Of a DNA stretch of 64,000 bases, positions 7,889-8,344 are shown in pieces (within the stretch, counting starts at the first letter, position 1; each line of letters starts with the position of its first letter). The notes beneath the pieces are model-generated. The model was given only the letters and a program-made list of their open reading frames with translations. It made no database searches and was not told where the DNA came from. A program made the translations under genes and the position numbers. Origin of the DNA: Escherichia phage KIT01; the sequence record AP019521.1; one strand, 5' to 3'.

Positions 7889-8344
7889 TTATTTTAGGTC
7901 TTCAGCCCAGTCGAGCTTCAAGGGTTCTTTATATTCTCTGTCTAAAACAACAGGAATCTGGACATCTCCACTAAAGGTAAGGGGTCCCACATTATAAGAC
8001 AGGGTGATATGAGGGGTGTAATCATCAAAATCGTGCGTAGCACCTAAGGTACGAGCATACTGATGGCGGCATTTAAGATACTCTGAATTGAGAACCAAAA
8101 CCAGGACAGGAGAATCACCGTGTTTCCATACTTCAAGATGTCCTGACGAAGCAACTTCAAAACTTCCGGATGCAACGGTGTATGGAACGTTGACTCTTGA
8201 ATAGCAGATTGTAGAATGGAATTTTTCACGAGGAACTGGATTAGGAACCTTTAAAGTGCGCTGAAGGTTTTCCAGCGCATCTAAAGTTAATTCAGAGAAT
8301 TTTGCAGCAACGTATAGACCTTGAGCAAAATCTTCGGTTTTCAT
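7889..8344 (-). CDS. acb1: 2H phosphoesterase, 57B/Acb1-like (anti-CBASS cyclic-nucleotide phosphodiesterase)
   Basis: 151 aa (T4 57B 152); two H-x-T motifs (HSTICY, HITLSY); position between IP genes and 57A. Confidence 0.65.

Follow-up and report, generated by a model that had tools for sequence, protein, structure and literature searches.

The DNA analysed here is a stretch of 64,000 nucleotides from Escherichia phage KIT01 (sequence record AP019521.1), referred to below as the window. The coding sequence treated here as acb1 (gene 57B) occupies positions 7889..8344 on the minus strand and encodes 151 amino acids, the stop codon being included in the coordinates; its ATG is read at 8344-8342 and its TAA at 7891-7889. 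The first-pass annotation had placed an open reading frame at exactly this position without stating its strand, and the frame is indeed there. It is whole in KIT01; in phage Bas43, acb1 is naturally disrupted. The gene was also said to lie between the internal-protein (IP) genes and gene 57A, which agrees with the map, as 57A is directly upstream and two IP-like genes are directly downstream. The order of the region is IP genes, 57B, 57A, 1, 3, 2, 4, 53 and 5, which is the same in T4 (where it begins ipI-57B-57A-1) and in JS10. Genes 57A, 1, 3, 2 and 4 are upstream of 57B on the same strand, while 53 and 5 are on the opposite strand.

The gene adjoining 57B upstream is the tail-fibre chaperone gene 57A (8344..8589, minus strand; PF17594 GP57, E 1.8e-28; PHROG 1002), followed upstream by gene 1, encoding dNMP kinase (8582..9343, minus strand; PF21448 DNMK, E 4.6e-90). 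The stop codon of 57A and the start codon of 57B share a TAATG overlap (8342..8346, minus strand; junction sequence GAAGAATAATGAAAACC), and the two genes overlap in T4 too. This overlap suggests that 57B may be translationally coupled to 57A, probably on leftward transcripts that would cross genes 4-2-3-1-57A. Going upstream on the 57B strand, the first T4-type late-promoter motif is TATAAATA (11315..11322, minus strand), located before gene 4, and it is a plausible candidate for the start of a late 4-2-3-1-57A-57B transcript. Motifs of this type number 18 in the window against 7.6 expected. A simple sigma-70 scan gave no excess over shuffled sequence (14 sites against 10.1), nor did a terminator scan (3 sites against 2.0), and the only promoter-scan sites kept were the two inside a repeated 68-nt cassette described below. 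Further upstream, the mechanical open reading frame of gene 3 (9343-10095, minus strand) spans 250 amino acids, compared with 196 in JS10 gp3; its true start is probably an internal methionine, in which case the apparent overlap between genes 3 and 2 would come from the way the open reading frames were called.

The name of 57B and its overlap with 57A could be taken to indicate that its product helps the adjacent, translationally coupled chaperone to assemble tail fibres. T4 lacking acb1 nevertheless grows like wild type in the absence of CBASS, a bacterial immune system (PMC9117128), transposon mapping found 57B to be non-essential on E. coli K-12 (bioRxiv 10.1101/2025.11.20.689424), and Pfam profile searches revealed no similarity of the 57B protein to chaperone families, so that the chance of such a role is negligible.

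Downstream, a PeSL-like cassette (7824..7891, minus strand; repeat family D1) comes right after the 57B stop codon and carries the early-promoter-like sequence TTTACA-16-TACTAT together with a 10-bp hairpin (7842-7869, minus strand; -17.2 kcal/mol, z -4.3). The 68-nt cassette is present twice on the minus strand, at 7256-7323 and 7824-7891, the copies being 72% identical and flanking the IP genes. Both contain TTTACA-16/17-TACTAT, the PeSL promoter consensus of T4-type phages being TTTACW..N17..TAYWAT (PMC4122927). Matching hairpin arms are visible by eye in the copy at 7256-7323, and the stems of the two copies differ by a compensatory change (GGGCT...AGCCC in one and GGTCT...AGACC in the other). 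The cassettes fit the PeSL ('promoter-early stem-loop') shuffling elements of T4-type phages (PMC2839356, PMC4122927), which suggests that the IP genes form a swappable module. The copy at 7824-7891 marks the boundary between a conserved block containing 57B and the variable IP genes.

The two IP-like genes themselves (7586-7822 and 7312-7584, both minus strand) belong to PHROGs 8765 and 7673, annotated as internal virion/head protein, and both encode the capsid-targeting leader MK[TS]YQEFI[TA]E, of which the part MK-x-x-x-EF is common to T4 IPI. The open reading frame at 7586-7822 probably starts at an internal methionine at 7810. Searches with T4 ipI, ipII and ipIII by tblastn indicated that these genes are not orthologues of any of the three, ipI giving no match at E<=1e-3. 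The downstream neighbour of 57B in T4 is ipI, and the two genes found here are different members of this polymorphic class of IP genes. The IP-gene interval carries no annotation in the JS10 RefSeq record. Injected proteins of the IP kind are often anti-defence factors.

The window shows several relationships with the Dhakavirus-type phages. About 7 kb around 57B has about 97% DNA identity to phages QL01, LHE83 and PSD9, the 57B protein is 100% identical to that encoded by an open reading frame of Escherichia phage MX01 and 98.7% identical to that of JS10, which is annotated as 57B there, and JS10 is classified as a Dhakavirus. By these sequence comparisons, the window is from a JS98/JS10-type (Dhakavirus-like) T-even phage. 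Its 57B shows essentially no difference from those of MX01, JS10 and QL01, in whose records the product is named 'hypothetical protein' or 'RNA ligase'.

Other parts of the window differ from T4 and JS10 in gene content. A SegB-like homing endonuclease with GIY-YIG and NUMOD3 domains (11937-12572, plus strand, 211 amino acids) lies between genes 53 and 5, a site at which neither T4 nor JS10 has a gene; for QL01-type relatives, a homing endonuclease is listed within the stretch that matches. The N-terminal half of this protein is 57.5% identical to T4 SegB, and a second, weaker SegB-like match is found at 51519-51890 (minus strand). The tRNA region (5757-5913, minus strand), which lies upstream of trna.2/3/4, has no more than two tRNA genes, Arg-TCT and Met-CAT, compared with eight in the same region of T4 and three (Arg, Asn and Met) in JS10. 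Between these tRNA genes and the trna.2 homologue is a 19-nt inverted repeat (6235-6278) with 89% complementarity and arms 6 nt apart, which may be a terminator or a processing hairpin. T4 acb2 (vs.4) and other genes of the vs/e region were also sought by tblastn; acb2 was not found in the window, which does not include that part of the genome, and this result is therefore uninformative for the whole phage.

The assignment of the gene at 7889-8344 to Acb1 is supported by homology well above the level of chance. The sole significant Pfam family is PF23474, "Anti-CBASS protein Acb1" (E 8.4e-59), which the protein matches with 197.9 bits where the cutoff is 27, its residues 8-149 aligning to profile positions 1-144 of 144. 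The best match among solved structures is Acb1 in PDB entries 7T26/7T27 (E 1.6e-58; 141 columns aligned, 64.5% of them identical), which derive from Erwinia phage FBB1 (PMC9117128). Comparison with T4 57B (NP_049750.1, from NC_000866) by BLASTP gave 128 identical residues out of 151 (85%) in an ungapped alignment (E 6e-100), the T4 protein being 152 amino acids long and the present one having one N-terminal residue fewer. T4 Acb1 also shares the IP-to-57A position of the gene. The first-pass annotation had called the product 57B/Acb1-like and proposed alignment to T4 Acb1 as a check, and these three matches bear it out. It had also equated T4 57B with Acb1, as established by Hobbs et al. 2022 (PMC9117128), who found T4 57B as the cGAMP-cleaving enzyme Acb1 by activity-guided fractionation. 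Homologues of 57B are carried by 1,470 of 50,697 phage records searched by tblastn, nearly all of them T-even-like.

Two H-x-T motifs, which had been put forward as typical of 2H phosphoesterases, were found by direct reading, namely HSTICY at amino acids 43-48 and HITLSY at 112-117. The first catalytic motif, H43-S44-T45 (T4 H44/T46), is encoded by CAT TCT ACA at 8210..8218 (minus strand), and the second, H112-I113-T114 (T4 H113/T115), by CAT ATC ACC at 8003..8011 (minus strand). When the protein is shuffled with its composition preserved, 5% of the resulting sequences also have at least two HxT motifs, so the pair is by itself weak evidence for a 2H phosphoesterase. The count of motifs was for this reason dropped as an argument, and the case for identity rests instead on homology.

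The 2H fold is common to Acb1 and LigT, which raises the question of whether 57B could be an RNA ligase, or an enzyme of LigT type that works on RNA ends as an RNA 2',3'-cyclic phosphodiesterase. PHROG 755 is named 'RNA ligase', the same product name appears in the T4, JS10 and RB69 RefSeq records, and one Acinetobacter phage record describes a homologue as a 'putative RNA 2',3'-cyclic phosphodiesterase'. The LigT/2'-5' RNA ligase branch shares the logic of two HxT motifs and metal-independent catalysis via a cyclic phosphate, but acts on RNA ends rather than on cyclic oligonucleotides. At a permissive threshold the 57B protein has only a partial match to the generic family 2_5_RNA_ligase2 (PF13563), with 13.8 bits (E 0.062) against a curated cutoff of 27 that it does not reach, compared with 197.9 bits for Acb1; no NCBIfam model matches it, even at E<=10. 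T4 57B was moreover isolated by virtue of its cleavage of cGAMP, and lysates of cells infected with T4 delta-acb1 lose this activity (PMC9117128). The RNA-ligase reading has already been largely refuted for T4 and is extremely unlikely to apply here. As a label, 'RNA ligase' was taken automatically from the superfamily; it reflects no more than distant membership of the 2H group, and not an experimental result.

The identification as Acb1 can be followed to individual residues. T4 Acb1 has a 2H phosphoesterase fold with an HxT/HxT tetrad of H44, T46, H113 and T115, bases stacked by Y12, W74, F107 and W147, a contact between E141 and adenine N6, and a C-terminal lid formed by residues 145-152 (PMC9117128). 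Residues were mapped on T4, to which the published numbers fit exactly, and not on 7T26, where no constant offset makes them fit because an additional residue follows position 74 of that chain; throughout the ungapped alignment, numbers in the window protein are those of T4 minus 1. The window protein has every one of the nine residues named (Y11, H43, T45, W73, F106, H112, T114, E140 and W146). The catalytic pairs H43/T45 and H112/T114 correspond without gaps to T4 H44/T46 and H113/T115; the first-pass annotation would have been refuted had its H-x-T residues failed to match the catalytic residues of Acb1, and they do match. The base-stacking aromatics Y11, W73, F106 and W146 are all kept, as is E140, the equivalent of the T4 residue involved in the adenine N6 contact and adenosine requirement. 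The lid (amino acids 144-151, LDWAEDLK, containing W146; 7892..7915, minus strand) has seven of its eight residues in common with T4 LDWADDLK.

HSTICY and HITLSY align with HTTIVY and HITLSY of the crystallised Acb1 7T26 in the HMMER alignment, and equivalents of Y12, E141 and W147 are also shared with 7T26/7T27, whereas the 7T26 chain has F and Y in place of the W74 and F107 of T4 and the window. A single-sequence AlphaFold2 model of the protein (pLDDT 39, pTM 0.31) was too poor for use, and we infer the 2H fold from the crystal structure of 7T26, with which the protein is 64.5% identical. Taken with the T4 alignment, the evidence makes it almost certain that the open reading frame at 7889-8344 encodes a functional orthologue of T4 Acb1 (gp57B). 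This identity is correct and already known, and the exact protein is already public.

Although the proteins are 85% identical, the DNA identity between 57B and its T4 counterpart is only 72%, with pN 0.133 and pS 0.763; these are given as raw values with no dN/dS ratio, since pS is saturated and above the Jukes-Cantor limit. The pattern shows that 57B is under strong purifying selection. The 23 amino acid substitutions relative to T4 are found mostly at the N-terminus and at T4 residues 56-58 and 75-80, the latter cluster following W74, and they include I43F beside the catalytic histidine, which would leave room for small shifts in specificity.

A rival reading is that the product is an Acb1-family enzyme whose substrate range has moved from that of T4 Acb1, for instance off decoy nucleotides or onto other signals, under counter-selection by Panoptes-type guard systems. 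Besides the 23 substitutions, such a shift has in its favour that type II Panoptes restricts Acb1-bearing T-even phages, from which escapers mutate acb1, and that plasmid-expressed acb1 cut colony formation in the presence of type I Panoptes; these two observations are the reason to believe that the selection pressure exists. For type I Panoptes, the loss of colonies with the plasmid-borne gene contrasts with deletion of acb1 from T4, which had no effect on defence. Against it, all residues reported for ligand contact or catalysis are unchanged, the pattern of substitution is that of strong purifying selection and not of diversification, and several Dhakavirus-type phages share the 57B sequence at 98.7-100% identity. 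A shifted range of this kind is very unlikely. It is likewise improbable, if a little less so, that the 23 substitutions retune the preference of the enzyme, for example by lowering activity on the Panoptes decoys cA3 and 2',3'-c-di-AMP while anti-CBASS function is kept; if they did, the Acb1 of this lineage would escape guards that punish broad depletion of cyclic nucleotides.

With Acb1 as the preferred identity, the likely function of 57B can be drawn from work on T4. Deletion of acb1 from T4 caused a more than 300-fold loss of plaquing on CBASS hosts with otherwise normal growth, H44A/H113A is a catalytically dead mutant, and activity is seen from about 15 min into infection (PMC9117128). 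Independently of that work, the transposon study found 57B to be conditionally needed on a CBASS host (bioRxiv 10.1101/2025.11.20.689424). T4 Acb1 does not cleave cGG, cA4 or 3'2'-cGAMP (PMC9117128).

By homology, the 57B protein of KIT01 would be a small metal-independent 2H phosphoesterase with the same enzymatic activity as T4 Acb1. Its ligands would be CBASS second messengers with at least one adenosine and 3'-5' linkages, such as the cyclic di- and trinucleotides 3'3'-cGAMP, cUA, cAAA and cAAG, a substrate range predicted by analogy with the T4 enzyme. The four aromatics would stack on the bases, E140 would read adenine N6 and the C-terminal lid would shut over the ligand. The enzyme is expected to strain the adenosine such that its 2'-OH attacks the adjacent 3'-5' phosphodiester, with acid-base catalysis by the tetrad H43/T45/H112/T114, and the ring would open via a 2',3'-cyclic phosphate intermediate to give a linear 3'-phosphate product. 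This product would no longer switch on CBASS effectors, allowing the phage to complete its replication. A corresponding benefit of 57B on the natural hosts of the phage is presumed from the same analogy.

The discovery value of the gene is little, as the biochemistry, structure and genetics of Acb1 have been characterised since 2022. In most of the matched phage records its orthologue nonetheless goes under 'hypothetical protein' or under 'RNA ligase', a name that comes from PHROG 755. Across these records an anti-defence gene that has been characterised is systematically misannotated or under-annotated, and public labels of 57B should be corrected to Acb1.

By depleting cyclic nucleotides broadly, Acb1 exposes T-even phages to detection by Panoptes guard systems, and acb1 for this reason both helps the phage and puts it at risk. 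KIT01 is predicted to withstand many CBASS systems whose signals are 3'-5' cyclic di- and trinucleotides with adenosine in them and, conversely, to be visible to Panoptes-type guards that sense the depletion of such nucleotides. Both expectations bear on host-range prediction and on the choice of phages for therapy.
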